64,000 bases of DNA from Rhodothermaceae bacterium (GTDB taxonomy: Bacteria; Bacteroidota; Rhodothermia; Rhodothermales; Bin80). The stretch spans positions 4,136 to 68,135 of the forward strand of contig VXLY01000105.1 in the NCBI GenBank assembly GCA_009841335.1, written 5' to 3'. This document shows, piece after piece, positions 1 to 33,971 of this stretch (position 1 is its first letter; the number at the start of each line of letters is the position of its first letter). The translations under genes and the position numbers were made by a program. Under the pieces are notes generated by a model that saw only the letters and a list, made by a program, of their open reading frames with translations, made no database searches and was not told where the DNA came from.

Positions 1-2580
1 CGTTACGAGTCTAACGGGCTGACGCAGGCTTTGCATGGCTTTATTGATCGCCTACCGCATCCCACGTCAACGGATACTAGTCAGCCACTTGCTGAGCTTG
101 TCAGGGATTTCGGAACAAGGCTTGATCACCCTCCCTTTGTTGATCCGAACTACTGCCGCATCTCGGAGGTCTTCTCTTGGTTACTTGGCACAGCCATCCA
201 TGCGATAGAGAGACTCGTATCCGCCCATTCAGAAGTGGCAATGCAGGATCATGGAATCGCGATTATACTCAAGCGTTCGGCTGCACGCGGTTGGGAAGGC
301 TCGAGCATTGATGACTACCAGGACAGTTTGGACAAATTGATTCCAGCTTGGCCCGAGTTGAACGACATCCTCTTTTGGAAATGTGTAGGGCAAGTACGGG
401 AACGGATGGAGAATGACGGGGAGCGGCTAAACAATGTACTACAGGTCCTACTCCCCGAACCGTATTGGTCATTTGGAACTGACGCTTTGCCCCGAGTACT
501 TGAATGGGTTAGAAAACGCGAACTGGAAGACGACCGCCATATTGCAATCTCGCTCGCCGTTCACATCTACGCAGAAGGGGGAAGACGTGTCGACACGCTT
601 ACCCGACTACAGGACGCTATTTCAGGTGATACTGAACTGGATGCGCGGCTGCATCAATTGCTTAATCCCAGCATATCGGAGCACGAACGCAAGCTCCAAC
701 AACAGAATTCGGAGATTAGGCAGCAGCGAGAGCAAATGAACCTCGAGCAAGAGCAAATAAAGGCAGATTGGATTGCGCACCTCAGGGCAAATCCCGACTG
801 TATTCGAATTCCTCCGGGGATGGGGCCCGGCGGGTTTAGTGGTGATCAATACTGGCTACTCAGAGAAGTAGAAGGTAGCGGCCATCAATCAAGCCGCTAC
901 GAAGGTGCAGCATGGGAATCCCTTATAGATGAATTTGGGATCGATGTCGCCCATGCGTACCGAGACGCCGCCATGAGACATTGGCGGCATTATAAACCCG
1001 AACTTCGATCAGAAAACCCGTTAGTCCAGCCAGATAGTTCTACCGGACAAGTCATTCCTTATTCTCTGCTCTTCGCCCTCGCAGGTCTCGAAATTGAGGC
1101 GAAGGAAGTAAGAGAATTTCCAAAGCACCTGAGCGATTCTGAGGTGTCTCACGCCCTACGCTACATCACTATGGAATTGAACGGCTTCCCGTCTTGGCTG
1201 GAGGCAATGTACCGAGCACGCCCTCAGGCGGTGATAGAAGCCACTAAGACTGAACTTTTCTGGGAATTGACCAACACACGACCCGGTCAACACATCCATT
1301 ATATCCTCGACGACATTAGATTCAGCGCTCCTTGGCTGCACTCCCCAATCGCCGAACCGTTGCTTGAATGGATGCGTGTACATGACGTGCCGAGCATTGA
1401 AAAACTAAGTGCCTGCCTCAGCATTTTGAGAGGCAGCGATGTGGATCCGCCGCAACTCGCCATGGTCGCGCAATCCAAAATTGCAGCTGGGCAGCCCAAA
1501 GAGCGTCTCCCGTACTGGTACGCTTTGTGGGTCGATTCCGAACCAGATACAGGTATTCCGAGCGCCGCCAACTGGCTCGATTGTTTCGATTCTCTCAGGG
1601 AGAGTTCACACGCTGCGCAACTCTTTGTTTCTACACTATTGGGCACCACCGGCGGAAGAAGTAGTGGGCCCTATATTGAGAACTTCAGAACGGCCGCGCA
1701 CCTCAAGGCTCTGTATGTGCTGATGCATAGACATATTCGTTTGGAGGACGACATTGATCGACCCGCCGGTAGAGGGTATACACCCGGATTACGTGACAAT
1801 GCCCAAGACGCGCGTAACTCATTATTCAGATTTCTGTCGGAGATTCCCGGTAAAGCGGCCTATGTCGCAATCAACGAACTTGCAGAAGAGCATCCCGACC
1901 CTGATGCTCGACTCTGGATGGCAAGACACGCATATAATCGTGCAGAGCAGGATGGCGATCTTGAGCCACTGACCGCAGACCAGGTCCATGAGCTTAACTC
2001 CAAGCTCACACTAACACCGTCAACCCACCGCCAACTGTTTGATCTGGCGATTAATCGCCTGACGGATCTCAAGGACTGGATTGAGCACGGCTTTGATAGC
2101 CAGTACGTGACTTGGCAGAAAGCCCAAAATGAAAGCGAATTGCGGAATCTCGTGGCCGGTTGGCTTAACCAGAATTGTAGTAACACATTCACGACTGCAC
2201 AAGAACTCGAGCTGGCGAATGGTCAGCGAATAGATATCTGTCTACAAAACGACAATGTTCGATCTCCAGTCCCGATAGAACTCAAAATGCTCAACAAATC
2301 CTGGACGGGACGAGACCTATGCGAGGGGCTATGCAACCAACTTGCGACTGATTACCTCCGACATGAGAAAGAGGGTTGCGGCGTAATGCTCCTTGTCTGG
2401 GGAGGAACTAGTAGGCCTGAGCGAACGTGGCAGATCAACGGTAGACGCGTGGGTGTGTCGGATCTCCAGGAAGTCCTTGATGGCTATTGGGTTAAGATCT
2501 CGAATGGCTTTCAGAATGTTGCGGCCATCAAAATCATCGTGATCGATATGACTATCAGAGCAGACTTTTCAAATACGTGA
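1..2580 (+). CDS. C-terminal part (5'-truncated by window edge) of a large putative defence protein with a C-terminal PD-(D/E)XK-like nuclease domain
   Basis: Frame is open from base 1 (RYESNGLTQALHGF...). C-terminal ELELANGQRIDICL...VPIELK...NQLATDYL...GVMLLVW fits a restriction-endonuclease-like D...ExK motif. The NTPase domain expected in such proteins is not visible in the window. Confidence 0.65.
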   Translation, partial: RYESNGLTQALHGFIDRLPHPTSTDTSQPLAELVRDFGTRLDHPPFVDPNYCRISEVFSWLLGTAIHAIERLVSAHSEVAMQDHGIAIILKRSAARGWEGSSIDDYQDSLDKLIPAWPELNDILFWKCVGQVRERMENDGERLNNVLQVLLPEPYWSFGTDALPRVLEWVRKRELEDDRHIAISLAVHIYAEGGRRVDTLTRLQDAISGDTELDARLHQLLNPSISEHERKLQQQNSEIRQQREQMNLEQEQIKADWIAHLRANPDCIRIPPGMGPGGFSGDQYWLLREVEGSGHQSSRYEGAAWESLIDEFGIDVAHAYRDAAMRHWRHYKPELRSENPLVQPDSSTGQVIPYSLLFALAGLEIEAKEVREFPKHLSDSEVSHALRYITMELNGFPSWLEAMYRARPQAVIEATKTELFWELTNTRPGQHIHYILDDIRFSAPWLHSPIAEPLLEWMRVHDVPSIEKLSACLSILRGSDVDPPQLAMVAQSKIAAGQPKERLPYWYALWVDSEPDTGIPSAANWLDCFDSLRESSHAAQLFVSTLLGTTGGRSSGPYIENFRTAAHLKALYVLMHRHIRLEDDIDRPAGRGYTPGLRDNAQDARNSLFRFLSEIPGKAAYVAINELAEEHPDPDARLWMARHAYNRAEQDGDLEPLTADQVHELNSKLTLTPSTHRQLFDLAINRLTDLKDWIEHGFDSQYVTWQKAQNESELRNLVAGWLNQNCSNTFTTAQELELANGQRIDICLQNDNVRSPVPIELKMLNKSWTGRDLCEGLCNQLATDYLRHEKEGCGVMLLVWGGTSRPERTWQINGRRVGVSDLQEVLDGYWVKISNGFQNVAAIKIIVIDMTIRADFSNT

Positions 2581-2672: not shown

Positions 2673-5600
2673 TCAGGGTATGACGGCTTGCTGTTTAAGT
2701 GCCTGTAGACGACGGTCCGTTTCAAGGTTGGGATTTGCCATCACCAGTCGATCAATCAAGTCTGGAAGGAAATAGAAGTCGCTGGTGCTACTACGACCGT
2801 AGACGTCCCATAACAACCCAAGGGTTTCACTGGGGAACATCTCAGGCATATCGGACTCGGCAATGACATGAAGTCCAGAGAAGGATGAAGATCTGGGGAC
2901 GATATATGGTTCCAAGAACCTGCATGCCTGAGGGAATTTATTGCCAGCGCCAACGGCCAACTTCAGGAGATTGGATGTGTGTCTCGTACTCCAGAATTTG
3001 CCTTCATTTGGCCAGATTTTCTCGAAGAAGGGGACAACCGTACTTGACCAAGCCGCTTCTGGATTATCTCTTTCACATTTAGATCGGTAACTTAATACGT
3101 CATTCAATACTTCGAGTGCACCTACAAGGAGGGCGGGAGATGACCTTTTCAAGACGCCAGTCGCATCTGCAGCAGTAATACCCCACTGAACTGTTGTGTC
3201 GGCGTCCTGCTCAATGTTGGCCAGTGCTGGAAGGACAACCCATGATGCGACTTTGCGGCGAGCGCGATCGTGGTCCCAACCCCACTCCAATAGGCCCTTA
3301 AGAAGTGCATCCTTGATATGAGTCGTAGCCAAAGCACTGGTGGGGTGATATTGTAGTATGATTATACGTAGCTTTTTCCCTTCTTCATTTTCAGCGTGTA
3401 GAACAGGTTTGAGGTTTTCAACAACAACTGAGAGTCCACAGTGGATCAGGAATGCGATATTACGCACAAGCACTGCGCGTCCCACAAGACCGACTGTACC
3501 CGGATACTCAGTGATTCGAATGAGGAGTTGGAATTGTTGGGTCGTTGGAATGCGGCCTTCTTTGAACAGGGCCTCAATTTTCAAGAGAAGCACCTCTGTT
3601 AGTTGGCCTGCTGGGGATTGAGTCGCTTGTTTGTATAGGTCGTCCTGATGGTCTGTCTCCTGCTCAGGGTGTTGTTCGAGAGATTCCCATAGCCTAACGA
3701 CCCACCCATCAAGCGTAGAAGAATTGCTCTCCCATGTCTGGCGAACTAAGGTGCAGAGAGCGGGCAAAACTGAGTGCAGGTCCTTTGTTTTTGCCTTGAA
3801 CAAATGTCCAAGTGCCCGTGCTGATAGGTTTTCACATTGTTGAGTACTAGATGAGTCGCTAGATGCTAAGACGTACAATAGCGTGTTCCATAGTTCGCTG
3901 TCGGCAAGATCAAAAGCTCTCTGTAATAGCGTGTCCAGTGCCCCTACCGGATCGCTCCGGCAATAAGTAGCCCATCCCTCTCGCTCCTCCAGATCACGAC
4001 TTGCAATCTGTTTTCGCGCAACTTGCAGGCGATCCTCTTCCTGTGCCTGTACAATGGGCGTAGGATCACCGACTATCAGTCGTGCCTGGGATATGTAAGT
4101 GCCGAAAAAGTCCCGGTCTTCTATCGCTCGATCCAAGTGGCTGCGGCGTTCAATAATTGACTCAAGTTCATTGGCGCCGATAGGCGATAGGGCATCAGCG
4201 TCTTCCAGTATCCTGAGAAGAAGCCACACCGCGTTGTCCCGTGCATGTTCTCGCCAATCGGATTCGTTTGGTTGCAATGTATATCGCCCGTAATAACTAC
4301 GGCTGCTATCACGGATCAACAGTTCAAATTCCCTCACCAATTCAGGCGCAGCGTTTCCAGCCCGATCTCTGATCAGGAGTGCTGATTCCCGGCGCAACCG
4401 CCAGAAATCCTGTTCGGAGACAGACAGCAATATTGAAATTGCATCGTCTGCACTGAACAGCGCGGGGTTTCGCATGGCGTGAAGGTAAAGACGGAGCCCA
4501 ATTCGCCCAGGAAAATGCTTCCAGCATTCCACGATGCATTTAGTGCCCTCGGGATCCAAAGTATGTGCTTTGGTCAGGCATTTGCTGAGAAGCTGGACAA
4601 GAAAGACCTTCCCCCCATGCGATTCATTTTGGAGATGGCTTTCTACAGAAGGCACCGCCCAGTCATTGTAGTCATGCTCATCATGAATCAGTCCGAGTTC
4701 CTTTTCGAGTTCAAGTATGGACCGCAATTCCCAAGTGGCAAGTTCGAGAATACGCTGAGTGTGATCTGACATCTTGCACAGCGAATTAGCTAACTCCTCG
4801 GCCTCTTTATAGTCGGAAACATCAATGCGTGCATTCAAGATGGAAGCCAAAGGGTGCCCACGATTTGCCAGTTCCCGTGCGCGGGGGCTCCGGCCCAGTT
4901 CCAGCTTCGGTGCTAGCTGGGCTACCGCCAAACGTAAATCGCAGTCCAGGACTATCTCGTTATTGAGAGGCATCTGCACTCGGGAGAAGGCTGTATCGTT
5001 ACGCTGCGCCGGAACGGCGAGGCAAAAGAGTCGCCATACTTTCTTCCAGTCCTGATCCAAGTTATTCGCACGAGATAATATCGCAGCCATATGCTCCGTA
5101 AATGGCTGCCCCACCTGCCTCTGCCAACGCAACGCACAGTCGAATCTGTCAGTATTCTGTAGGTCCCTACCAACCCAGACAGAAACGAATCTGGCAATTT
5201 CGGCCTCATGCCATGCTCCATCTTGCCGAAAGAAATCAAACCATTTTGGGTCCATAATGGCATCTAGCGCGACCGACCAGAGATTTCTAGGTTTTTTAAG
5301 AAGCCATACTATTTCGTTCCGTGACTGCGGACACGATTCCGAAACATCCTGTTTTAGAATTGTGATTACACGCGATCGGAAGGCTTCCTGTTGGTATTCA
5401 ACCACATATACCAATTCCCTCAGGTCGCGCCATAACGTAGCATGGTCTTCTTCTCCAGTATTCTCGTTCATTTTGCAATATGGGAGAGCCTTGACAGCTA
5501 GAATTTGCCAAAATGCGACAGCCTCCTGCTTATCCTTATCATCCTTGTATTCAGCGAAAGCATATACCTGCCGCAGGTCAGAGAACCGGGTACGATCTGC

Positions 5601-6299
5601 CTCAAGTACGTTGAGCAAATAGCGTACGGGCACATCGTTGGCGCTGTATCCAACGAGTAAAATATCCCTGCAACGCACCAGATCAAAGAAAAAGCGTGAA
5701 GCCCAACCGGACCGCATATAAGCCTCTCCGAAATCGGTACTGGTTAGTACCAGTGGACTCTGTTCCAAGTCAAGTTCTGGGTCCGCCAACCGTCCGTGTA
5801 TATGCACGATGCCCGTAAAATCGGAACTGCCGGGCGCTGGCAATGCTTGGCCAGCAGAACTGATTTTCTTCAGGCAATCTTTGTCATTAAGGGTTACTGC
5901 AGCCCTCTCCAGCAGAGTGTCAAAGTTGGTCGTCACTACTATAATCCGGTTATCCAAATCCCGGGCAAGGCGGAGGATGGTGCAGTGATGATCAAGGCAT
6001 GCAGAAGTGGGCACAGCGAGCAGATCCGAAACCGATCGCGTAACCTTCTCAGGATCTGCCAGCCGTTGTCTGAGCGATCCCAGAACTTCCTCATACCGCT
6101 CAGCTTTGAACGCTATTTCCTCTGACTTCGACATATCCATCGAGAGTTCTTTGTACGTCCGCTCAACCAATCCCTTGAAATCTGGCAATTGCGGTCTGCT
6201 GATTCCCGAACCGCAGAGAAAAACCACCTCACCCTTCAATAGTGAGTCGACTAGGTCACCCGGGAATTCTGGCCCATCATTTGAAAAACGGAGAGACAT
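2673..6299 (-). CDS. SIR2-domain anti-phage protein, Dsr1-like (1208 aa)
   Basis: N-terminal sirtuin motifs GEVVFLCGSGIS, TTNFDTLLE, VHIHGRL, LVGYSAND. The start MSLRFSNDGPEFP and the long helical C-terminus resemble Dsr1/DUF4020-type proteins as I recall them. Confidence 0.85.
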   Translation of the reverse strand: MSLRFSNDGPEFPGDLVDSLLKGEVVFLCGSGISRPQLPDFKGLVERTYKELSMDMSKSEEIAFKAERYEEVLGSLRQRLADPEKVTRSVSDLLAVPTSACLDHHCTILRLARDLDNRIIVVTTNFDTLLERAAVTLNDKDCLKKISSAGQALPAPGSSDFTGIVHIHGRLADPELDLEQSPLVLTSTDFGEAYMRSGWASRFFFDLVRCRDILLVGYSANDVPVRYLLNVLEADRTRFSDLRQVYAFAEYKDDKDKQEAVAFWQILAVKALPYCKMNENTGEEDHATLWRDLRELVYVVEYQQEAFRSRVITILKQDVSESCPQSRNEIVWLLKKPRNLWSVALDAIMDPKWFDFFRQDGAWHEAEIARFVSVWVGRDLQNTDRFDCALRWQRQVGQPFTEHMAAILSRANNLDQDWKKVWRLFCLAVPAQRNDTAFSRVQMPLNNEIVLDCDLRLAVAQLAPKLELGRSPRARELANRGHPLASILNARIDVSDYKEAEELANSLCKMSDHTQRILELATWELRSILELEKELGLIHDEHDYNDWAVPSVESHLQNESHGGKVFLVQLLSKCLTKAHTLDPEGTKCIVECWKHFPGRIGLRLYLHAMRNPALFSADDAISILLSVSEQDFWRLRRESALLIRDRAGNAAPELVREFELLIRDSSRSYYGRYTLQPNESDWREHARDNAVWLLLRILEDADALSPIGANELESIIERRSHLDRAIEDRDFFGTYISQARLIVGDPTPIVQAQEEDRLQVARKQIASRDLEEREGWATYCRSDPVGALDTLLQRAFDLADSELWNTLLYVLASSDSSSTQQCENLSARALGHLFKAKTKDLHSVLPALCTLVRQTWESNSSTLDGWVVRLWESLEQHPEQETDHQDDLYKQATQSPAGQLTEVLLLKIEALFKEGRIPTTQQFQLLIRITEYPGTVGLVGRAVLVRNIAFLIHCGLSVVVENLKPVLHAENEEGKKLRIIILQYHPTSALATTHIKDALLKGLLEWGWDHDRARRKVASWVVLPALANIEQDADTTVQWGITAADATGVLKRSSPALLVGALEVLNDVLSYRSKCERDNPEAAWSSTVVPFFEKIWPNEGKFWSTRHTSNLLKLAVGAGNKFPQACRFLEPYIVPRSSSFSGLHVIAESDMPEMFPSETLGLLWDVYGRSSTSDFYFLPDLIDRLVMANPNLETDRRLQALKQQAVIP

Positions 6300-6619: not shown

Positions 6620-7963
6620 CTACTTAAAGCGTCCTGCGCGAATTTTGCAAAAAAATTTCTTGCAAATCTGGCTGAGCTCACTTAGAAAGTCAGTGAAAAT
6701 GTTTGGGGCTGCCGCTTGGCTCATATAAGTTGGGTTTGGATCGATTTGCTTTGGCGTAGGGCCAAACCGAAAGTCATATGAAACGGTGTGGATAACTAGG
6801 CGATTAACACTTACCACTTTCAGGATGTCTTCTCTAATAGGTCTTCCGAATAATGCGACGTTTGAAAATGTTCCAGCCTTAATGTGTTCATGGAATTGTG
6901 GAATGCGACGCAAAGATCTCCCATAAATGGTTTCATTTGGCATTTGCCAGGTCCTGACTTTATTAAAGAACGAGGGATACAGTAAACCATCAAACCCAGC
7001 CTGATTAGCAGCGCGAGAAATGTCTCTGCTAATTTCATAGGAGTGTCTTGCCGCGTGAAACAACATGTTGATGGCCGTGTCCAGGCTCTCAAACTCTGTT
7101 TCCCCATCCTGATTGGGCAAAATCACCGTCAAGTCAAGTAGACGTAGATTACTCCTTGGAATAAGGGCCGCCAAATAAAGATCGTCTTCTGCGGTTACAC
7201 GACATTCATGAATGCAGGTGTCTATATCATCTGAGCAATACAAAACAGGCAGGTCTTTTGAGTCCAGTCGGCCATCCCCTACATGTTTTATCGGAGGACT
7301 GTCATATTCGAGATAGTCATCAGGGTCGCGGGGGTCTATCCTTAGGCGGTATAGGATTGTATCATGGGGTAGTATCCTTTCGGGATATTCTTCAAGGACA
7401 CGGTCTATTACGGCCATTCGGGTACAAGGATTTATCAAATCCTTCAACGGTTCTACCTCCCCCAACATCCAAAGGTTAGGGGCGTAATGGAAGAAGCGGA
7501 TCCGCCCCTTCTCACTGAGGAGGGCAACGTCATCTCTTAGTGATTCATCACCCTCGTAATCACCTTCCCGGGGCTGCATTTCATTGAATGCGATTAATGG
7601 GGCATCCCCATATCCCTGCTTAGGTCTCCACATACTCCCTCTCTCAAAAAACTGACGTGCCAGATGTTGGATTAAGTGATGTGTTAGTTTTTTCGTATCA
7701 CGCTCCCCACAGTGAGGACATGATAGTGCAAGTGGCACTGCTACACGTTCTGCATTCAATCGCAATCCATGGTTTGACAAGCAATTAGTACATATTAGTG
7801 GACGGTAACTATGAACCAAGTTACAAATCAGGATTGCTCCCAGGCGAGTCCTAATCGCATACTTCCCTACTACATCAAGAAAATGAAGAGCACGGTAAAT
7901 TCTACGGCGCAAATACCTGTAGAAAATTCGCATGGGGTTGAGAGATTTTTCATTATTGTCCAA
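6620..7963 (-). CDS. RES-domain protein with N-terminal CxxC...CxxC (Zn-finger-like) region
   Basis: LYRLR...DSPP...GDGRLDSKDLPVLYCS...CIHECR...RLLDLT...GFDGLLYPS carries the R, E and S signature. N-terminal ICTNC and SCPHC. Start codon uncertain. Confidence 0.8.
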   Translation of the reverse strand: MDNNEKSLNPMRIFYRYLRRRIYRALHFLDVVGKYAIRTRLGAILICNLVHSYRPLICTNCLSNHGLRLNAERVAVPLALSCPHCGERDTKKLTHHLIQHLARQFFERGSMWRPKQGYGDAPLIAFNEMQPREGDYEGDESLRDDVALLSEKGRIRFFHYAPNLWMLGEVEPLKDLINPCTRMAVIDRVLEEYPERILPHDTILYRLRIDPRDPDDYLEYDSPPIKHVGDGRLDSKDLPVLYCSDDIDTCIHECRVTAEDDLYLAALIPRSNLRLLDLTVILPNQDGETEFESLDTAINMLFHAARHSYEISRDISRAANQAGFDGLLYPSFFNKVRTWQMPNETIYGRSLRRIPQFHEHIKAGTFSNVALFGRPIREDILKVVSVNRLVIHTVSYDFRFGPTPKQIDPNPTYMSQAAAPNIFTDFLSELSQICKKFFCKIRAGRFK

Positions 7964-8133: not shown

Positions 8134-9612
8134 CTAGGTACTATAAATCTTTTTGGTTGCTTCCACTGCTTCATCAAGGCTGGGCAACAGGGTCTCCCGT
8201 GAGACATCAAGCAGGCGAAGTTCGTCATTGATCGTATCCTTGCTATCATGTGGTATTTCAAACGTGAAATGATCATAGATAAGGATATCGGAATTAAATT
8301 CCAGAACCATCTCCCTCTCCAATCTCTCATGGAACGCCGAAAGGAGGAAAGCTCCGCGTTGTGCCCTAATTCGCTCAAATGATTGCCTTGGCTCAACAAT
8401 AAAGACCTTAAAAAACAATTTTGGATTGGGGCAATAATCAAGATAGTATTTCTCTTTTCGCATCTCCCTCTGTAAACGCTCCATTGACATACTATAGACC
8501 AGTGACGCTCCGAACTTAGGATTCTCCTTCCCCAAAAGAGTCTGTTGGTCGTGATAAGGTAGCTTAGCAAAAGTTGACAAAATGCTAATCTCGTCACTGT
8601 TGGGGGATTTAATCATTTCACGAGGAACAGAAAATACATGCATCCGTCCAGGCCGCTTCTCCACACCACCCTCGCACGCCCAAAACAACGCGACCAAGGG
8701 GTTTCGTGTCAGGTCAAGTAGTCTGGTAGGTAGTCCATGATGCCGCGCGATCACCCATTCGTCAAATGCGGATGATGCATTTAAGAAATCATTTGGCCTC
8801 ATGGTTAAGACGTTTTGCAACAGGTCGTGTTCTTTCTCACGAAAAGTCCCTTGTCCGTTTTCGCGCTCACGCATAACAGACGGCCGTAGACCCCAGTTGT
8901 TTGCGGGTTCACCACGAAAATAGAACACTCGTTTAGGATACAGATTCTTTAGCGCTCTATATACGTTTAGCAGTTCCTCAATGCGCTGAATGTTGCATGT
9001 ATCACCTCCAGAGCCAAATGGGTTTGATGTTGGCTTGCTACTCGCTGACTTCGCGTAAAATAGTTTCGACTCCCACAAGTCAACACCGTAGAGTACAACA
9101 TCCGCCAAACCCACACCATATAAACCCGTGTTCATTACGTTAGCCCATGACATGACAGCCCCCCGCAGATTCGCACCCGAAAAATCAGCCTCGGTAAGGT
9201 TAGATCCTTCCAAATTAGCTTCCACGAGGTCTGCACAAGTCAGGACGGCATTGCGGAGACTTGCCCCTCTCAGACAAGCATTGTTAAGCATTGCATTGTC
9301 AAGGTTCGCCCCATCAAGCACCGCGTTCCTAAGGTAGGATTTTTCCAAGGTTGCATGCTGAAGTTTTGCATCCCGAAGGTCTGCTCCATGGTTTCCATAT
9401 CTCTCCCCCAGAATAGCACCACACATCTTCGCAGCAAAAAGATTAACACCGCGAAGGGGTATTCGCCCATCGTCATCAAGCATGTTGGCTTCGTCAAACG
9501 CCTTGTAAATGTTTACACCAGATAGGTCTGGAATAAAAGGGGACTGCTCTTGTCTATCGTTCCAGCTTTCTACCCCTTCCAGTATCCACTTAAGATGTTG
9601 AGAGTTTGCCAT
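8134..9612 (-). CDS. Pentapeptide-repeat / FRG-domain fusion protein
   Basis: Likely start MANSQHLKWILEGVESWN (ATG 9612). About 20 A(N/D/V)Lxx pentapeptides, then FRG motifs FYFRGE...LRPSVMR and ARHHGLPTRLLDLTRNPLVALFWAC. Confidence 0.85.
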   Translation of the reverse strand: MANSQHLKWILEGVESWNDRQEQSPFIPDLSGVNIYKAFDEANMLDDDGRIPLRGVNLFAAKMCGAILGERYGNHGADLRDAKLQHATLEKSYLRNAVLDGANLDNAMLNNACLRGASLRNAVLTCADLVEANLEGSNLTEADFSGANLRGAVMSWANVMNTGLYGVGLADVVLYGVDLWESKLFYAKSASSKPTSNPFGSGGDTCNIQRIEELLNVYRALKNLYPKRVFYFRGEPANNWGLRPSVMRERENGQGTFREKEHDLLQNVLTMRPNDFLNASSAFDEWVIARHHGLPTRLLDLTRNPLVALFWACEGGVEKRPGRMHVFSVPREMIKSPNSDEISILSTFAKLPYHDQQTLLGKENPKFGASLVYSMSMERLQREMRKEKYYLDYCPNPKLFFKVFIVEPRQSFERIRAQRGAFLLSAFHERLEREMVLEFNSDILIYDHFTFEIPHDSKDTINDELRLLDVSRETLLPSLDEAVEATKKIYST

Positions 9613-10126
9613 GAGTGCCCAGCCATTTTCCTTAGTTGGACGTAACCGATCCAGACGTAGCCGGTTCACAAAACCACGATATCAGCATATTTTCGAATTC
9701 AGATGGACTAACGAGCAAGGATTCAGATTACTCCTGTTAAATTAAACTGCACCGTGTCTTGTTGGGTCATGAAATCTGATCATCTCAGACATGCCGAGAT
9801 ATGGGTGTATCTTAGAAATTAGGAATATGAACATATTTCCGTATTCCTGTTCTCCAGAAAGCGCGGGTACATCCCGTAGATACAAAACTTTGAACCATAC
9901 CATTTGGAACCTCCCACGCTACACCAGTTTGCCATTTCATTGAAACCTAATCGCCTCTAGATTCTAAGAATAGCGACGAACAAATGCCAACCATTCAAGT
10001 AGTGCTCGGGGGATTGGACAAGTTGATGTCCCAAGTCTGCCAGATCACCAATGGCAGTAAAATTGGTTTACAAGAAGCCTGTTTGAAAGTGTTAATACAT
10101 TTTCGAACCAACAGAACGGACATTTT

Positions 10127-11035
10127 ATGAAAATACGGAATGGCCCTGATGGCATTCATTTTTTTGACAGGAATTCGGGCACTAATCTGCTGCTGAATGA
10201 AGTTGTCTTACCCCCTGAGATTTGGAGTAGGTCGCCAAGGCAAGTGTCTATTGCACTGACTAATGCGTGCGACCTCGACTGCCTGCACTGTTATGCCCCG
10301 AAAACAAAAGCGAGACTTGAGGGTCAGCTTGTCAAGCGGTGGATGTCTGAGTTAGATGAGCAGGGTTGTTTTGGCGTCGGATTTGGCGGCGGGGAACCAA
10401 CCCTGCATCCAGAGTTGGTCGATATCTGCAATTATGGACAGTCAGAAACTGGCTTGGCAATTACAATAACTACTCATGGACATCACCTAAGTAATGATTT
10501 GTTGTCCCAACTTGCCGGAAGTGTAAATTTCATCCGTATAAGCATGGATGGTGTGGATTCGACTTACGAATCAATCCGGAATCGCTCCTTCAATCATCTG
10601 CTTGCAGTTCTCAAGAAACTGGATAGCCTTGTGCCATTTGGGATTAATTACGTCGTCAACCACAGAACTATTGATGACCTTGACAAAGCAATTCTTGTCG
10701 CCGAGAGCTTGAAGGCAAAAGATTTTCTTCTGCTGCCCGAGGAACCGTTTGGCCGAGGTGTGGAAATTGATAGCGGGTCACTCAAGCGATTAAAGGAATG
10801 GGTAGATTTGTACAAGGGCAATCTACGGTTGTCGGTTAGTTCTAGCTACGCGGCTGAATTCCCGAGCGCGTTGCCACTTGAGAAGGAGCCCGAGGAAATG
10901 GCTTTTTCCCACATTGACGCCGCAGGTGTTCTGAAACGAAGCTCCTATGAAAGTGGTGGCTGTAAAATTGATTCCCGCGGCGTCATAACCGCATACAGGT
11001 TATTGAACAGAGACACTGCAAGAGGTTTATTATGA
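10127..11035 (+). CDS. Radical SAM protein (302 aa, no SPASM domain)
   Basis: CX3CX2C motif CDLDCLHC (10268-10291), GGGEPTLHP, ISMDG. No C-terminal cysteine cluster. Confidence 0.9.
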   Translation: MKIRNGPDGIHFFDRNSGTNLLLNEVVLPPEIWSRSPRQVSIALTNACDLDCLHCYAPKTKARLEGQLVKRWMSELDEQGCFGVGFGGGEPTLHPELVDICNYGQSETGLAITITTHGHHLSNDLLSQLAGSVNFIRISMDGVDSTYESIRNRSFNHLLAVLKKLDSLVPFGINYVVNHRTIDDLDKAILVAESLKAKDFLLLPEEPFGRGVEIDSGSLKRLKEWVDLYKGNLRLSVSSSYAAEFPSALPLEKEPEEMAFSHIDAAGVLKRSSYESGGCKIDSRGVITAYRLLNRDTARGLL

Positions 11036-11421
11036 AGATCTGGAAGAGCTACGGCTCTGAGCATTCAATGAATCTTGTCATGATCGGCAGTTTCAAAAAG
11101 GAGGACGACGCTGAAAAAGTCGAAGAGGAGCTTAGGTTTCTGTTTGAAGAAATTCGAAGCTTGGACGATTCCGAGGTTTTTAGAGATCGATTCAGCGATG
11201 ATGTCAAAAAACTGCTGTATTCGAAAGAGATATACTGCTTGATGCCGCAGGAACTAGAGCAATTCCAGTATGATCATAGCTTCGAGCGCGACGGTAAAAA
11301 AATACGGTACTGGACCGACGAGTGGGATGTTTCAGCAGCGCTGAAAATCATGCTCACGGGGGGAGCGAAAGTGGAAATATTCTCTGGAGACAATTATCGA
11401 GAGTCCGATGTGAAGGAGTAG
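11032..11421 (+). CDS. Small acidic hypothetical protein (resembles DUF6375 family by recall)
   Basis: ATGA overlap with the radical SAM stop. N-terminus MKIWKSYGSEHSMNLVMIGSF. 10-bp gap to the next gene. Confidence 0.75.
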   Translation: MKIWKSYGSEHSMNLVMIGSFKKEDDAEKVEEELRFLFEEIRSLDDSEVFRDRFSDDVKKLLYSKEIYCLMPQELEQFQYDHSFERDGKKIRYWTDEWDVSAALKIMLTGGAKVEIFSGDNYRESDVKE

Positions 11422-11431
11422 AAAGTCGGGA

Positions 11432-14400
11432 ATGCTTGATTGGGGAAAATTTAAAAACCTTACGGGAAGCGACTCCGAAAACTTCGAGAAACTGTGTCGT
11501 AGCATAGTGCGCAGGAGGTTCGGACATTGCGGTCCACTTATTGGGAGAAGGAATCAACCCGGTGTTGAGTTTTATATCCGGCTCAGTCGGGATTGTCCCG
11601 AATTAGGCAGTTCGGGCGAAAAGGTCGGGTGGCAGTGTAAGTGGTTTGAATTGAGAGCGAATAAGAAACTAGTGTCTAATCAAAGGAAGCAAATCAGGCG
11701 CTCTCTTGACACTACAAAAGCTCATATTGAAGGTTTAAATCGCTGGATACTCTGGTTACCCTTCACGCTGGCTGAAGAGGATCAGGACTGGTTTTATGGT
11801 CTGCAACCTGAATACGAGTACGAACTGCATTTGTGGAATGCCGAAGATATTGACGGTTTTCTGGAAGGTCCGGCACTTGAGTTAAGACACGCATACTTCG
11901 GTGAACTTGCGCTGACTGATGAAGCATTGGAATGGCAGCATGGTTTGTCCGTGGCCCCGATAAGAGAGCGGTGGATAAAAGAGGTTCATCACCAGGTACG
12001 GGTCGAAAAAGAGTTACAACAATATCTCGGTCATCCTTCGGCTTGGGAAGACTTTAAACAAGCAGGTGCTTCCCTGTCAGAAGCTTATGAGGCCATAAAA
12101 AAAGATGTTAATGAATCCATTTATTGTGATTGGTCACAAGACCTGAAGGAGTTCCTACTTTATTGCTCAATGTGCCTCAGGTTTGCTGAATATTTTACTA
12201 ACAATCTAAGTGCGGAAGACATTGAGTCTATTAACGGCATGCTCAGTCAGGTTAGATCGCTTGATTCAAGAATTCGTACTGTCTTGTACCACATAAGAAA
12301 CAGGAATCTGCCGCTTGCTATAGAGATTACTAATTCACTTGCATGTATCAAGGACATTCGAAAACTGCTGGAAAACGCATCGGAATATTTGTCCTGTTCT
12401 TTTGTTGCCGTGATAGCGGATGCTGGGGGCGGCAAGACTCAGATGGCTGCTGAACTGACGGCAACTCAACGGCATGGTCACCGACCTGCGGGGATCCTTC
12501 TGCATGGCAGACGTCTCCAGAAAGGTGGCAGCTTGGATGACCTCGCCAAGGAGATTTCGTTTTACGGACAGAAAGTACCAAGCTTCCAGGCATTAGTTTC
12601 CGCCCTTGATGCAGCCGCCTACAGAAGCAATTGCCGCTTGCCAGTTATTATTGACGGTCTCAGCGAGGCAGAGGAGCCCAGGGAATGGAAGCCGGAGCTT
12701 AAAACAGCGCTCGAACTGCTTAGGAACTATCCGAATGTTTTGCTTATATGCACATTAAGATCCGGCGAACGGGAACACCGTGAGGCCGCTCCCCGTCGCA
12801 ATAGAAGGGCGAACAACCGGGAGATCTTTGCGCAAATGTCACTGCCTGAAGACTGTGCCCGCCTAGAATGCGACGGCTTTGGCAATCTAACTTTGAAAGC
12901 CGTCAAAAGCTACTTCCAGCATTATAAAATCGAAGCAGATTTAGTCCGGATCCCGAAAAATTTTTTTAACCACCCACTGAACCTGCGGATATTTTGCGAG
13001 GTAACTAACAGGAAGGCAGAAGAAACAGTGAAGGTTACTACTTTTCCTACCTCAATTACAACCTTGTTCGGCAAGCAAATTGAATATGCTGCTGAAAGGA
13101 TAGCCGAGTTCACCAATCTCCATCGGCCTTACAGTAAAGAGGATGTTCGGTCTACAGTTTTTCACTTTGGGAAAGAGTTGTGGGTGTCGGGGATGAGACA
13201 GGTTTCCGAGGCGGATCTACTCCGTTCGCTTGATCAACCAGGGAGGAGTTGGGATGATAGTATTGTCAGTCTTCTGGCGCAAGAGGGAATAATATTTCGC
13301 AATCCAGACGATATCCCTGGGGCATACACCATCACTGCGGTTTTTGATCGATTGGGCGGCTACATAATTGCTGACGCGTTATTACAAGAAAACAGAAGTA
13401 ATACCATGTCTAACTGGATGTGTAGTGACACCATTCTGGAAATGCTGTTTGGAGAAAATGAATCAAGTCACAGTTTGTCTCAGGACATTTTGCATGCTCT
13501 GATAGCTCTCGCTCCTAAATACTCGCGCAATCAAGAACAGCTATGGGAGGTTGTCCCGGAGAAGTATAGAGAAGAAGTTATTGATCTGTCAACACTGATT
13601 GACCCCGAGGATTTCTGTGACAAAACCAAACAAGAATTCAGAGAGCAGATACTACGAAAGGGATTGGATTATTCTACACTAGCGCGTTTGGAGGATCTTC
13701 TCGCTAGCGATCACCCGCTTAATGCGGATTTTCTGAGTGACTTATTGAGAGCTTTTTCCGTAAAAGAGAGGGACCTTTCGTGGACTGAATATTTGCGAGG
13801 GTATTATGGCGACTATATGTTACCTCTGTTGCCCAAAATCGACTCCCTTGTACAACGATGGAAGTCCGACAGTACACCTAAAACTGAAGGCGACAGGCTT
13901 TTGGCTGTCTGGGTCAGTTGGCTGCTTACGTCCACATCCATTGAGATACGGGACTTCTCTACCGAAGCCCTTTACTGGTATGGCAGAAGTTGTCCTAGGA
14001 ATCTGTTCGAGGTGACCGTTTCTTCGCTGGACATTAATGACCCCTATGTTCCTGAAAGGCTTTTAGCCGCCAGCTACGGAGTTGTCATGTTTTTTGTATA
14101 CAAAGAGGAACATCTGGAAGAAATGAAGTGGCTCGTTTCCCGGTTATACGAGCAAATGTTCTGCAAGTCGGCCAAAAACGCGACGACACATTTCTTAGCC
14201 CGGGACTACGCGAGTCGGATAATATGGATAACAAGAGAACTCTTAGCGGGGACTCTATCTAATGAACAATTGGCGGATGCTTCACATCCCTATACCTCCA
14301 TGCCGAGACGAATATGGGGATCTCTAGAAGGGATTGCAACAGGGCCAAGGACTGAATCTCCCTTGGGCATGGACTTCGAAAATTACACTATCGGAAGATT

Positions 14401-15571
14401 AGTTCCAGGTCGCAATGCCTACGATTATTACCATCCTGATTACCAGGACGTAAGGGCAAAGATATTGTGGCGTATTAAAGATCTTGGATGGAACAACGAG
14501 GACTATGCAATCGCCGAAGAAAGAATCTCCGAAGGCTCAAACCGTAGAAGGATGCATGGTGATCGAATCGAACGCTACGGGAAAAAATATTCGTGGATTG
14601 CATATTATGAAATAGCGGGCCAGCGCCTTGATGAAGAAATGTTGAATACCTACGGTGAGCGATTTGCGGCAGATCTTGATCCAGGTTTTCCAAAACCGAT
14701 TGTTGAAAGAGAATTGGGAGCGGCAGAGTATCTAGGCGATTCTGATATGGATACGGTCGACTGGATCAAGAATTCAAACCCGCCTGAAATAGACCATCTA
14801 ACCAAAATAGACTCTTTGGATGGTGTATCTGGGCCCTGGGTTTTGTTATATGGTGGTGTTTCTGAAAGATCAAAAAGGATAGACAGGTATTTTGATTTTA
14901 GTTGCAGAGCAATCTTGGTTAAGCAGGGCGATATACAGAAACTGATTTCTTACTGGAGGAATGGCGGGCGGGAGAAAATTGATTTGCCAGAAATGGTTCA
15001 ATCTACGTACCTGTATTCTGGAGAATTGAACAGGTTGCCAGATAGTATGCTTAACTCTAATGTAGATATTAATCTTGTTGTAGGTACAACGGTCGAACGG
15101 CAGGAGCAACCCACAATTACATTTGTGGAGAATGAGGAAACCATTGTCTTAACAACTAAACAAGTACTTGAAGACGTTGTAGTTCCGGTCTATGAATCCA
15201 TAAGAGCATGTAACCCAGTGGCTGAGTTCTGTTGGCTTGCGAGAGATAGTTCTACGCCGAGTCTACCAGTGATCGTTCCGACTTCAATATTAGTGGAAAC
15301 CCTGAATCTTAAGATTGATCCAGCATCATTTGATGTTGAGGATATTCAAGGCAACCTAGCTGCACGCAATATAAATTTTGGAGGCCAGACGCATGGCAGC
15401 TACAGGAGGTTCTTCTATATACGAGGAGATCTTTTGACTAGATTTATGGCCGAAGAAAGACTGCAATTGGTCTGGCTTGTACATGGAAGGCGAACAGCCG
15501 ACATTTTTTCGTCAGACGCTGCGTATCAGGAATTTAGTTTTGCAAACCAGGTGAGAGATAGCTCACTGTAA
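11432..15571 (+). CDS. Avs/AVAST-like STAND NTPase with N-terminal Mrr-like nuclease (1379 aa)
   Basis: N-terminus W..FK...NFE..C...NQPGVE...GWQCKWF resembles the Avs4 nuclease domain. Walker A ADAGGGKT (12416-12439), Walker B VIIDGLSE. Long C-terminal sensor-like region containing IERYGKKYSWIA. Confidence 0.8.
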   Translation: MLDWGKFKNLTGSDSENFEKLCRSIVRRRFGHCGPLIGRRNQPGVEFYIRLSRDCPELGSSGEKVGWQCKWFELRANKKLVSNQRKQIRRSLDTTKAHIEGLNRWILWLPFTLAEEDQDWFYGLQPEYEYELHLWNAEDIDGFLEGPALELRHAYFGELALTDEALEWQHGLSVAPIRERWIKEVHHQVRVEKELQQYLGHPSAWEDFKQAGASLSEAYEAIKKDVNESIYCDWSQDLKEFLLYCSMCLRFAEYFTNNLSAEDIESINGMLSQVRSLDSRIRTVLYHIRNRNLPLAIEITNSLACIKDIRKLLENASEYLSCSFVAVIADAGGGKTQMAAELTATQRHGHRPAGILLHGRRLQKGGSLDDLAKEISFYGQKVPSFQALVSALDAAAYRSNCRLPVIIDGLSEAEEPREWKPELKTALELLRNYPNVLLICTLRSGEREHREAAPRRNRRANNREIFAQMSLPEDCARLECDGFGNLTLKAVKSYFQHYKIEADLVRIPKNFFNHPLNLRIFCEVTNRKAEETVKVTTFPTSITTLFGKQIEYAAERIAEFTNLHRPYSKEDVRSTVFHFGKELWVSGMRQVSEADLLRSLDQPGRSWDDSIVSLLAQEGIIFRNPDDIPGAYTITAVFDRLGGYIIADALLQENRSNTMSNWMCSDTILEMLFGENESSHSLSQDILHALIALAPKYSRNQEQLWEVVPEKYREEVIDLSTLIDPEDFCDKTKQEFREQILRKGLDYSTLARLEDLLASDHPLNADFLSDLLRAFSVKERDLSWTEYLRGYYGDYMLPLLPKIDSLVQRWKSDSTPKTEGDRLLAVWVSWLLTSTSIEIRDFSTEALYWYGRSCPRNLFEVTVSSLDINDPYVPERLLAASYGVVMFFVYKEEHLEEMKWLVSRLYEQMFCKSAKNATTHFLARDYASRIIWITRELLAGTLSNEQLADASHPYTSMPRRIWGSLEGIATGPRTESPLGMDFENYTIGRLVPGRNAYDYYHPDYQDVRAKILWRIKDLGWNNEDYAIAEERISEGSNRRRMHGDRIERYGKKYSWIAYYEIAGQRLDEEMLNTYGERFAADLDPGFPKPIVERELGAAEYLGDSDMDTVDWIKNSNPPEIDHLTKIDSLDGVSGPWVLLYGGVSERSKRIDRYFDFSCRAILVKQGDIQKLISYWRNGGREKIDLPEMVQSTYLYSGELNRLPDSMLNSNVDINLVVGTTVERQEQPTITFVENEETIVLTTKQVLEDVVVPVYESIRACNPVAEFCWLARDSSTPSLPVIVPTSILVETLNLKIDPASFDVEDIQGNLAARNINFGGQTHGSYRRFFYIRGDLLTRFMAEERLQLVWLVHGRRTADIFSSDAAYQEFSFANQVRDSSL

Positions 15572-15739
15572 TAGTTGTCTTAAGTATGTGCTGAGTGTAT
15601 AGAGTTGGTACTTGTCCCGGATTAATCTGTGGACATTTTCCTGTATCTCTTATGTAACTCCCGTACTCTACCCTCCATGGTATAGCACACCCATTTTGTC
15701 TGGACAGGGCCACCTGTGACGCATATTTGTAAGCTTGCT

Positions 15740-16624
15740 TCAAATTAGCGGCAACAACGTCTCGGCGGAACGACGCACATGCATTTCATAAAAATCGGAA
15801 CTGAATACGCTGCTGCCATGATCCTCCAGAAATTTTCGTTCTGAATCCGATATCCCTTCGGGGTTGGAGTCTACACTGCCCGGAAACCGATTCGCTGGCG
15901 TGCGATCAAGTGGAGGACAAAATTCAACCGAGATCGCACCGTCGTAACCAACCTCTTTTAACGCCTGCACGATTGCAGGCCAATCCAAACAACCCATGCC
16001 ACAGGCCATGCGGTTGTTGTCTGCAACGTGAAAGTTTACCAGGCGGCCTTGTGCCTCGTGAATAGCGGCAATCGGATCATCCTCCTCAATATTCATATGA
16101 AAGATGTCTAGACATACCCCGCAATCTGGAGCCACCGCCTCAGCCAAGGCCAACGCCTGGGCACCCCGATTAATGAAATAAGTCTCGAAGCGATTAATGG
16201 GTTCAATGCCGATCTTGACCCCGTGCTGACGCCCATGCTCATTGATCTCCTGCAAAGCAGCAACACACCAGTCCCACTCCATCTCCGGAGTTGAGTCTGG
16301 AACGATTTTCCCGACCGTGCTGGGCACTACCGAGATAACCTCCCCACCCAATTCGCCCACCATCGTGATGCAATCCTTCACATAAGTCACTGATTCTGCT
16401 CGCTGATCCTCGTCTTTTGCAAGGAGATTGCGCTCATCAAGCATCAAGGTGACACTGCCCCAACAACGCACCCCATAGCTATCCACAAGCTTGCGAACCT
16501 TACCAGTATCGTATTTGTAGGGCTCGCCCTGAATTTCCAGGCTCTTATAGCCGTACTTGGCTAACCGCTCAACGGTAACCTCTATTGGTTCGACCTTCAT
16601 CCAGTTGTGTATCGCAAGGTGCAT
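15740..16624 (-). CDS. Sugar phosphate isomerase/epimerase (xylose-isomerase-like TIM barrel; ketose 3-epimerase family)
   Basis: IGIEPINRFETY, LDIFHMNIEE, FHVADNNR metal-binding motifs. Confidence 0.9.
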   Translation of the reverse strand: MHLAIHNWMKVEPIEVTVERLAKYGYKSLEIQGEPYKYDTGKVRKLVDSYGVRCWGSVTLMLDERNLLAKDEDQRAESVTYVKDCITMVGELGGEVISVVPSTVGKIVPDSTPEMEWDWCVAALQEINEHGRQHGVKIGIEPINRFETYFINRGAQALALAEAVAPDCGVCLDIFHMNIEEDDPIAAIHEAQGRLVNFHVADNNRMACGMGCLDWPAIVQALKEVGYDGAISVEFCPPLDRTPANRFPGSVDSNPEGISDSERKFLEDHGSSVFSSDFYEMHVRRSAETLLPLI

Positions 16625-31942: not shown

Positions 31943-32413
31943 TCATTCTCCGTTGCTGAAACCAAACTCTTCGTGCAGCTTGGGCAGATTAAATTGTCCC
32001 CGACAACAAGAACGTAGATGGTTTCCTTTCGGAGGGAGTGCTCCGTGGATCACTTACATTCCCCTAGTCTCAAGAAATTCCGCCACAGGGACAAAATCCG
32101 CGTCGGAGGAAACCAGCCCGGCTACGTCGTAGTTGTTAACCCACACCAATTTGATCATATCTGCTGCCATGCGTACATCTATACCCTTCTCCTCCGTTCC
32201 ACGCATATCGGCACCGCTCTCTCGACAAACTTTCGTGATTTGATGACGTTGCGGACATTTACCAATGAAAGAACCTATTGACGTAAGATTTGGAATTGCG
32301 AGATGCAAATCGGTTGCCAGTAGTGATCCCCGTCTTGTGGACACGGTGGCTACCAGCCTTAAAACCATACATAACCGGTTCTGCCGCGAATATTGTGGAG
32401 AACCACAAAACAT
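31943..32413 (-). pseudogene. NYN (PIN-like) domain gene, C-terminal fragment with premature stop
   Basis: EEKGIDVRMAADM...LVSSDADFVPV. In-frame TAA at 32054-32056 is followed by continued NYN-like sequence VIHGALPPKG...FNLPKLHEEF to TGA at 31943-31945. Confidence 0.75.
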
Positions 32414-32679
32414 TTTACAATGCGAAAACGAAGAGACTCCGTGATACGATCATTTATCGCTCTGTTTTGTGCAGCTATGCTGATGTTTTTCGGCGGTAAT
32501 GCATGATCACAAAGCGATGTATCCGATAAAAAATGCAACCATAAATGTAGCTTTAAAGGATGCAGCGGCGGTCATAAGTCGTGCCGTGGTGCGAACGTCA
32601 GATGTTGCCACGTTGAAGATCTTCCCCGTACCACAGATGAAACATGGGGCGTATTATGTTTCGACAGCATATTTTAGTG

Positions 32680-32940
32680 ATGAAAGTAACTATTAAATCT
32701 CGTAAGGCTCGGAGGCTTTTTGCATCATTGACATTCGTATTAATTATTAGTCTATCGGGGTGGGCGTCCAATAATGCTGGACTTAGTATCGTCCCTGAAT
32801 GTTGTGACTCACGATCATGTCGTGCGGTGGGATGTGACGGGGGAAATATGATATGTGCAACTATGCCATGTCAGTGGTGTGTGGACATACCTCATTCAAT
32901 TTGCTTCCCATGGGTCCTGGTATATTCTAAGTGGGCATGA
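32680..32940 (+). CDS. Small putative secreted cysteine-rich peptide (8 Cys)
   Basis: Basic then hydrophobic N-terminus (MKVTIKSRKARRLFASLTFVLIISLSGWA), then ECCDSRSCRAVGCDGGNMICATMPCQWCVDIPHSIC. ATGA overlap with the next gene. Confidence 0.55.
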   Translation: MKVTIKSRKARRLFASLTFVLIISLSGWASNNAGLSIVPECCDSRSCRAVGCDGGNMICATMPCQWCVDIPHSICFPWVLVYSKWA

Positions 32941-33971
32941 CCTTAATGAACAGTAGAAACACTGTCCTGATCTGCTTTTTTGTTTTGTCCTGCAGTAGTG
33001 GCGAAGGCAAGGCTACCTTCGGAGAGTTTCTGCTTTTAGAAAAAGCTGAGGAGCAACAAACACAGGAAAGGGATTGGAAAAGTGTTTCTGTGAGTAGGAT
33101 GTTTGAGTTGCCTGCGGATGGGGAGGTTATGCTGTACAACCCCCAGTATATCATACCGGGCTCCAATGGAGATGTGTATGTTGTTGACTACGGGGTGTAT
33201 CAGATTTTTCGGTTTGATTCTGAGGGCAATTATATCATGTCCTATGGAAGTGGTGCTGGTCGTGCCCCCGGCGAATTTGTAAACATAACTAATGTTGAAG
33301 TCGCATCTGATTCGCTCATTTATGTAACAGATCCCGGCAACGCGAGAATTTCTTCTTTCTCAAAGGCGACAGGGAATTTTATAGATTCAAGAGTATTTGA
33401 CGGGCAGGATACTCCTTCCCGGCACGCCATAACGGATACAGGCATAGAGTACTTTTTCCGATCGTTTAATGAACTAGCCTTTGAATCTAATTTCAGGGAT
33501 AGATCGGTTGAATTTGGAGAATTAGTGGAAGGAGACCATTCCCTTTCTACGGCGGTGGCAGCTGGGATGATGGAAACGTATAAAGACTGGATGATTTTTG
33601 TTCCTTTTCGCTTTCCTGTAATTATGGTTTATGATGTGAATGGTAGTCTCGTTCGGGCAAAGAAGACAATGACCCTTGACAGGTTTGAAGAGCCCCAGCT
33701 AGTACAATATGTGATGAATGGAATTGAGAGCTATAGGATTGAAACCGATTTCAGGAATAGTTTCATAGTAAGTGTCGTGGGAGACGAATTGTTGCTTCAT
33801 TCCAGGAGCGATTCAGAAGATATGATTGTTGATGTATATGACGCTAGGTCGGTCGAGTACAAGTATTCATTTAGATTGGATTACTACCCGTCGCGTATAA
33901 CAAATGATCGAATGTATCAGTCAACCCGCGATGGCACTGTGATTGTCCATTCAATAAAAAGACCTTCTTAA
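32937..33971 (+). CDS. 6-bladed beta-propeller (NHL-like) lipoprotein
   Basis: Lipobox VLSC; VYVVDYG...FDSEGNYIMSYGSGAGRAPGEF...IYVTDPGN. Confidence 0.8.
   Translation: MTLMNSRNTVLICFFVLSCSSGEGKATFGEFLLLEKAEEQQTQERDWKSVSVSRMFELPADGEVMLYNPQYIIPGSNGDVYVVDYGVYQIFRFDSEGNYIMSYGSGAGRAPGEFVNITNVEVASDSLIYVTDPGNARISSFSKATGNFIDSRVFDGQDTPSRHAITDTGIEYFFRSFNELAFESNFRDRSVEFGELVEGDHSLSTAVAAGMMETYKDWMIFVPFRFPVIMVYDVNGSLVRAKKTMTLDRFEEPQLVQYVMNGIESYRIETDFRNSFIVSVVGDELLLHSRSDSEDMIVDVYDARSVEYKYSFRLDYYPSRITNDRMYQSTRDGTVIVHSIKRPS

Follow-up and report, generated by a model that had tools for sequence, protein, structure and literature searches.

What does a protein do that joins a pentapeptide-repeat beta-helix to an FRG domain, and is its natural setting bacterial defence? 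The question is raised by a gene at 8134..9612 on the minus strand of a 64,000-nt stretch of contig VXLY01000105.1 from a Rhodothermaceae bacterium (hereafter the window, to which all coordinates refer unless a locus is named). It encodes a protein of 492 amino acids (aa) in which tandem pentapeptides precede a C-terminal FRG module, the domain that PADLOC models as PDC-S15 and calls a "phage defence candidate". A first-pass annotation had described the protein as about 20 tandem pentapeptides fused to a complete FRG domain, and proposed that the repeat is a DNA-mimic decoy that senses phage. We find that the fusion of the pentapeptide beta-helix to FRG is real. With a probability of roughly 0.55, we read the protein as a single-gene, abortive-infection-type candidate of the FRG/PDC-S15 class, in which the repeat would regulate or sense and an ADP-ribosyltransferase (ART)-like FRG module would act on NAD+.

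Architecture and predicted folds of the two modules

The reading frame is open over 8134..9669, from the TAG stop at 8134-8136 up to a GTG at 9669, and we placed the start at the ATG at 9612 because the homologues all begin at the equivalent MAN... sequence. Four parts can be distinguished: an N-terminal helical cap, the pentapeptides, a linker of about 20 aa and a complete FRG module of about 285 aa, all on the minus strand. The cap (9463..9612, residues 1-50) forms two helices in the AlphaFold2 model and has W9, G13, W17, F26 and P28 as invariant residues. The beta-helix (9055..9462, residues 51-186) was matched by the Pfam Pentapeptide profile (PF00805, E 3.9e-31). Residues 76-185 (GADLR...ESKLF) comprise 22 consecutive canonical pentapeptides in one register and without interruption, with [ACSTVG] at position 2 and [LFMIV] at position 4, compared with a longest comparable run of 5 in 2000 shuffles of the protein. 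Five further, degenerate units in residues 51-75 bring the repeat to a total of 27, and it terminates in a conserved PW.AKLF cap. The linker (8989..9054, residues 187-208) is variable and was modelled with low confidence. The FRG module (8137..8988, residues 209-492) has a predicted ART-like alpha/beta fold and contains the Pfam FRG core (PF08867; 8668..8925, residues 230-315), which was matched over positions 3-88 of the 94 in the profile (E 1.5e-18; 67.9 bits, cut-off 25) and carries the motifs YFRGE (residues 231-235) and QHHGLPTRLLD. PDC-S15 matched residues 205-490 over profile positions 21-296 of 300 (E 2.3e-60), and all 14 matching PDC-S15 models aligned to these same residues, leaving the pentapeptide half uncovered. 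These matches, together with the 22 units, bear out the initial description of the protein's two halves.

By inspection only, the N-terminus (MANSQHLKWILEGVESWNDR...) lacks a hydrophobic signal-like stretch, and the Pfam scan of the 492-aa protein found neither a secretion sorting domain nor an NTPase switch domain between the repeat and FRG. A promoter and terminator scan around the gene gave results at chance level.

In the full-length AlphaFold2 model built on 48 homologues (predicted local distance difference test score, pLDDT, 86.6; predicted template-modelling score, pTM, 0.83), beta bridges recur every 5 residues from residue 51 to about 173, with a pLDDT of 93-99 over residues 11-180. 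The modelled helix is regular, right-handed and of about 6 coils (approximately residues 51-180), and by both AlphaFold2 and Foldseek its fold is that of a right-handed quadrilateral beta-helix. In Foldseek the full-length model matched solved pentapeptide proteins (E 1.9e-10) and pentapeptide proteins only, so the FRG part was folded alone (pLDDT 92.9, pTM 0.89). The best Foldseek matches of the repeat were cyanobacterial and designed pentapeptide proteins; QnrB1, MfpA, AlbG and EfsQnr also matched structurally (E 1e-7 to 4e-5), and NleL and SopA appeared among the matches.

For the FRG-only model, Foldseek found nothing significant in the PDB (best E 0.23) or among viral models, where the best E was 0.029 and a few ART-PolyVal rows occurred. 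A PDB sequence-profile search with the family alignment matched pentapeptide chains only and nothing for FRG, and a search of the ESM Atlas with the FRG part, from which FRG and pentapeptide families were excluded, returned a single meaningless row (0.81). At least 30 of the 50 rows listed by a wide search independent of Foldseek bear on the FRG fold, and the ART-fold RES toxins MbcT, ParT and RES-Xre are among the structural matches of the FRG model. In the rows for cholera toxin, heat-labile toxin, pertussis toxin and PltA, the range of the model begins at 26-28 opposite chain residue 1-2. Judging from these range starts, and provided that the first strand contains no gap, R233 would correspond to residue 7 or 9 in chains of the cholera/pertussis type, and we take those residues to be the NAD-binding arginines of the R-S-E class. 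R233, in the F-R-G motif, is the likely NAD-binding arginine of the module; T296, T302, S339 and S425 are candidate catalytic Ser/Thr residues, and E407, E429 and E432 candidate glutamates. PMC9503650 assigns Frg to the ART superfamily and regards it as a predicted antiviral effector that may be an NADase, and PMC12522546 names FRG as an ART-like family. The first-pass account of FRG as a poorly characterised, ART-related domain of conflict systems agrees with these papers and with the fold searches. Taken as models, the results point to an ADP-ribosyltransferase-like module with predicted ART-type chemistry.

Conservation differs among the four parts. Mean identity to the query across 47 full-length homologues was 0.51 in the cap, 0.36 in the repeat, 0.13 in the linker and 0.49 in FRG. 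Within the repeat, invariant or near-invariant residues occur only at inward-facing A and L positions. The invariant polar residues of FRG in the 48 full-length homologues are R233, E235, E261, R272, H291, T296, R297, D300, H325, S339, R414, Q418, S425, H428, E429, Y446 and K458, and in a wider set of 55 sequences R233, G234, R248, T296, D300, R414 and S425 remain invariant.

Prediction of a complex between the repeat (residues 1-196) and FRG (residues 205-492) scored 0.47 (runs 0.45-0.56, best control 0.00), a result graded as "weak support". The runs shared at least 93% of contacts with a partner pLDDT of at least 88; no interface was given, and we draw no conclusion from it. Of 157 solved complexes, 116 reach the mark used for such predictions, as do 2 of 215 mismatches, but only 18 of the 157 and both passing mismatches have scores of 0.60 or below. 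These counts are rough for the present case, since our own alignment was used.

A widespread family with separable modules

The architecture is not peculiar to the window. Of the 120 matches listed from a search of 5.8 billion proteins, one is a 270-aa fragment; the others all span 98-100% of the query at 40-53% identity and have both Pfam domains. Searching exhaustively with the FRG module gave 7837 cluster representatives with E <=0.001, of which 1920 reached <=1e-10 and 238 reached <=1e-30; the best 150 representatives of 50%-identity clusters include 138 with the repeat-then-FRG order and 12 with FRG only. In one-genome-per-species data, a relative is encoded in 169 of 227 candidate stretches, which gives 169 species genomes of many phyla with a relative. 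The fusion is a genuine, well-conserved variant within an already known family of candidate defence proteins. It resembles PDC-S15/PF08867 in that its C-terminal 285 aa match nearly end to end and in being a single gene in a variable neighbourhood, here within a defence island; it differs in its pentapeptide half, which those models do not cover, and PDC-S15 is itself a candidate.

Our analyses of individual loci rest on 80 retained loci (L001-L080), which carry at least 13 phylum- or class-level labels: Chloroflexota (44), Latescibacterota (12), gammaproteobacterial (6), Acidobacteriota (3), Rhodothermales, Verrucomicrobiota, Thermodesulfobacteriota and Alphaproteobacteria (two each) and seven other labels (one each). 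All 80 relatives come from metagenome-assembled genomes (MAGs), with taxon labels that we presume to be typical of marine sponge and invertebrate microbiomes. The family may circulate within sponge or invertebrate communities; one of the taxon names is mentioned by the abstract of a note on a sponge genome, and a second by a sponge-symbiont paper.

In 9 of the 80 loci, the repeat and FRG are encoded by separate, translationally coupled genes divided at the linker. Six of these, all from Chloroflexota (L013, L015, L018, L052, L037 and L039), have a TAA or TAG in the linker with the ATG of the FRG gene as the next codon, at junctions near locus positions 10530-10890 and 6907. The other three, from Latescibacterota (L061, L064 and L068; 10587-10594), have open reading frames (ORFs) that overlap by 8 nt, ATGGGTGA. 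The occurrence of two junction types at the same domain boundary indicates that the modules can work as separate polypeptides. Stops in three further loci (L032, L051 and L071) lie elsewhere, inside the domains, and these look like pseudogenes or assembly errors. Related genomes also contain ORFs of 174 and 185 aa that consist of cap plus repeat and lack an FRG within 1.5 kb.

FRG is also found with other partners. A Dadabacteria locus (L016:13242-14738) encodes, 1.8 kb downstream of its pentapeptide/FRG gene, a 498-aa protein with an N-terminal FRG and C-terminal TPR. A P2-like phage (L111:320-1684) carries, just past its replication gene, a protein of 454 aa in which an unassigned N-terminal domain (about 190 aa) precedes a C-terminal FRG, and the lambdoid coliphage Tritos (L112:3485-4819) has a 444-aa counterpart between replication genes and the HokD/ImmA region. 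Both phage proteins occupy accessory sites and are 28-31% identical to the FRG module of the window. Given these TPR and phage N-terminal partners, FRG thus behaves as a conserved module joined to exchangeable partners. The arrangement, including the FRG/TPR pairing in L016, is reminiscent of Avs/STAND proteins, which combine a variable repeat module with a conserved toxic effector; unlike them, the protein of the window has no NTPase switch domain between its two modules.

Defence neighbourhoods and the weighing of alternatives

The 80 loci collapse to 48 independent neighbourhoods, 34 of which were scanned, amounting to 130 of the 182 nearest ORFs (no more than two on each side, minimum length 100 aa; PADLOC matches at E <=1e-10). 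A PADLOC match was found for 26 of the 130 nearest ORFs, distributed over 18 of the 34 loci, as against 6 of 57 ORFs at the far ends of the same loci (about 8-10 kb away) and 1 of 37 in the non-island rest of the window (an ABC ATPase). Relative to these 37 ORFs of the window, the excess is significant (one-sided Fisher p = 0.006). Near matches include Dsr1, Gabija A/B, type II, IIG and III restriction-modification, SIR2-HerA, Olokun OloA, bSEFIR and PtuB, and Pfam adds toxin-antitoxin, HEPN, PIN and STAND genes in other neighbourhoods. In three Latescibacterota loci (L009, L020 and L038; about 9100-13500), the fusion lies downstream of an SNF2/HKD helicase and between a DUF4391 gene and a type III-like methyltransferase, and so inside a restriction-like gene cluster. 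In an Opitutales locus (L002:6069-9662), a 1197-aa Dsr1-like SIR2 protein is encoded 338 bp upstream of the fusion; it and the Dsr1-like SIR2 protein of the window were not grouped by an all-vs-all comparison. In that comparison, which covered 1592 ORFs of the 80 loci, the biggest cluster other than the fusion itself spanned 10 of 80 loci, all of them syntenic. There is accordingly no conserved partner, and the RES gene that lies 170 bp downstream of the fusion in the window, considered as an operon partner, was rejected and is taken as incidental.

The link to defence loci is real but not exclusive. By the first-pass annotation, its proposal would be refuted if the fusion were common outside defence islands. 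This is the case in part: 18 of the 34 neighbourhoods contain a PADLOC-model gene and 16 do not.

We favour the abortive-infection-type reading stated at the outset, which could operate as follows. The FRG module of about 285 aa would be the effector, with a predicted ART-like fold using NAD+; once released, it would hydrolyse NAD+ or transfer ADP-ribose to a target. The capped beta-helix would be a variable regulatory module that restrains the effector, recognises an infection cue, or both, and a role of the repeat as sensor or regulator is plausible. The cue would probably be a phage protein, and DNA mimicry would not be needed. Consistent with a defence phenotype, a preprint (bioRxiv 10.64898/2026.02.22.706922) lists PDC-S15 with the features that weigh most in predicting phage infectivity in a P. 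aeruginosa model.

Several observations weigh against this reading. The excess of PADLOC matches among nearest ORFs is not significant relative to the far-end ORFs (p = 0.08), and the background taken from the window is drawn from a single genome. The 16 neighbourhoods without a PADLOC-model gene among the four nearest ORFs include at least 11 that hold ordinary metabolic, transport or repeat-protein genes. The catalytic assignment rests on range starts and toxin numbering and not on a residue-level alignment. Alignments of FRG and RES (PF08808) compared with hhalign showed no similarity (probability 0.1-0.6%); the RES ORFs for this comparison were chosen by coordinates, since phmmer with the RES protein of the window recovered few, and Pfam gave no RES match on the pentapeptide/FRG protein. 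No relative was confirmed on 2.9 million viral contigs searched with two patterns (67 pattern matches), our literature searches found no experiment on any FRG protein, and nothing that we found points to a trigger. The architecture may already have been described in the primary Frg paper (Burroughs and Aravind 2020, PMC7685563).

The proposal that the pentapeptide helix is a Qnr/MfpA-like DNA mimic, and that binding of a phage DNA-processing protein switches on FRG, draws on the regular right-handed helix of the model and its structural matches to QnrB1, MfpA, AlbG and EfsQnr. The repeat is also more variable than FRG, as expected of a sensor, and a tested Hailong-like defence system includes a pentapeptide-repeat protein, according to PMC13586616. 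However, low identity is expected for any pentapeptide repeat, in which 2 of 5 positions are constrained, and the top structural matches are cyanobacterial or designed rather than gyrase-binding. Although they share the repeat fold, Qnr, MfpA and AlbG are stand-alone gyrase protectors of about 180-220 aa, whereas here the helix is joined to an enzyme module, is nearly neutral in charge and has no conserved surface. The repeat has a net charge of -3 over its 136 residues, and the median for the 48 homologues is 0 (range -10 to +5); none of the outward-facing residues is conserved. From this near-neutral charge and the unconserved outward positions, we infer that the family has no DNA-like acidic surface in common and no conserved binding face, the acidic surfaces of Qnr and MfpA being presumed here and charge being compared among the homologues only. 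When plasmids were searched with the repeat part, the matches were generic pentapeptide proteins, with no Qnr among the 30 matches listed. On these grounds, the DNA-mimic idea is unsupported rather than refuted, and we regard it as improbable. Its most elaborate form is more improbable still: a nucleic-acid-mimicking beta-helix would trap a phage DNA- or RNA-handling protein and free an ART-fold, NAD+-consuming effector, the whole constituting a widespread, exchanged single-gene immunity. If the mimic reading were true, this would be the first defence sensor to work by DNA mimicry and the first biochemical role for FRG.

Alternatively, FRG may be a constitutive ART-type toxin, with the repeat as its inhibitor in cis or in trans or as a module steering it to a fixed cellular target, so that the gene would act as an addiction or island-stabilising element and not as a phage sensor. 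The coupled two-gene loci place the repeat gene first, and antitoxin-then-toxin is the usual gene order in such systems. Toxin-antitoxin neighbours occur, namely an MbcA/ParS-type antitoxin domain in L003 and a Phd domain in L037, and the structural matches include the RES toxins MbcT, ParT and RES-Xre. Those toxins show no profile similarity to FRG and are proteins of about 150-190 aa with a separate Xre-type antitoxin; the module here is of about 285 aa and fused to the repeat. Against the toxin reading, FRG lacks the repeat in 12 of the 150 best representatives, its association with TPR or with a phage N-terminal domain fits exchangeable sensors better than a dedicated antitoxin, and the repeat has no conserved outward-facing surface suited to a fixed target. 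This makes the toxin explanation unlikely, with the qualification that toxin-antitoxin and abortive-infection readings are not mutually exclusive. We consider comparably unlikely a role outside defence, as a cytoplasmic NAD+/ADP-ribose regulatory enzyme or a host-community factor that rides mobile islands. It would account for the neighbourhoods without a PADLOC-model gene, several of which hold metabolic, transporter, NHL, cadherin/LRR or TPR genes, and an ecological driver is possible given that 56 of the 80 loci are from Chloroflexota or Latescibacterota MAGs. The matches to NleL and SopA, secreted enzymes with pentapeptide substrate-binding domains, also speak for it: as in our protein, a pentapeptide helix lies N-terminal to an enzymatic domain in one polypeptide, and in NleL and SopA the helix serves substrate recognition. 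Yet these are secreted enteric effectors with a HECT-like E3-ligase domain unrelated to FRG, and nothing in the present protein suggests secretion, neither its N-terminus as inspected nor its Pfam domains. The frequency of defence neighbours is well above the one-genome background, the island in the window and a same-genus copy beside a type III restriction-modification system are defence loci, and FRG homologues occupy accessory sites of temperate coliphages.

The island in the window and the meaning of the family

The island that contains the fusion has a GC content of 0.45-0.47, compared with about 0.52 for the rest of the window. Two genes from the fusion lies a Dsr1-like SIR2 protein (2673..6299, minus strand, 1208 aa), and next to it, on the same strand, is the RES protein already mentioned (6620..7963, 447 aa). 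Divergent from the fusion, at 10127..15571 on the plus strand, are a pVip-like radical-SAM gene, a DUF6375 gene and an Avs2-like STAND gene, whose ORFs overlap or abut. The Dsr1-like SIR2, RES, pVip-like radical-SAM and Avs2 genes thus all lie within 13 kb, and the fusion gene sits in a conflict locus. Synteny with the two closest same-genus genomes, in which the flank is 92% and 89% identical at the nucleotide level, stops at 15736-15740. The adjacent 18 kb of those genomes encode none of the island proteins; they hold an AlbA_2/HATPase_c_4 gene and, after it, housekeeping genes. The island is specific to the strain. Genes to its right are ordinary (a TIM-barrel enzyme, an ABC transporter, sulfatases and DUF1501/DUF1549/DUF1553 proteins).

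Within the genus, only 2 of 23 genomes have a full-length relative, with 43-46% identity, and one same-genus copy adjoins the type III restriction-modification system already noted. The genome under study carries a second paralogue on another contig (G000:C41:10224-11684; L108:9222-10721), near a SacI-type restriction enzyme, a YaaC-like gene and a DUF5677 gene. It is 44-45% identical to the window copy and nearer (49-57%) to copies in other phyla.

Some features of the window are recorded as observations in their own right. The radical-SAM gene (pVip-like, E 2.7e-21), the DUF6375 gene and the Avs2-like gene (E 3e-105) have junctions at 11032 versus 11035 and at 11421 versus 11432, and they look like one operon; a viperin-like enzyme coupled to Avs2 would be unusual. 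The RES protein at 6620-7963 has an N-terminal zinc ribbon and no adjoining Xre-type antitoxin gene, and RES proteins with a CxxC...CxxC motif at their start and a length of about 350 aa are found in three same-genus genomes (L088, L090 and L091). At the left edge of the island, an 849-aa ORF (31-2580, plus strand) has no Pfam or PADLOC match and is missing at the corresponding place in the two closest genomes; the island may continue past the start of the window. A 346-aa ORF that weakly matches a six-bladed beta-propeller (DUF5128) lies within a second dip in GC content (0.446, at 32000-34000).

FRG is common in prokaryotic conflict systems, and the pentapeptide/FRG family offers one gene with two separable modules and a manageable set of invariant residues, whose natural split versions suit tests of inhibition in trans. 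Being concentrated in MAGs from a range of phyla, the family might serve as a marker for the exchange of genes inside one type of microbial community. If the abortive-infection-type reading is confirmed, an ART-type effector class would join the NAD+-targeting defences represented by SIR2, TIR and RES, and pentapeptide repeats would gain a role in immunity.

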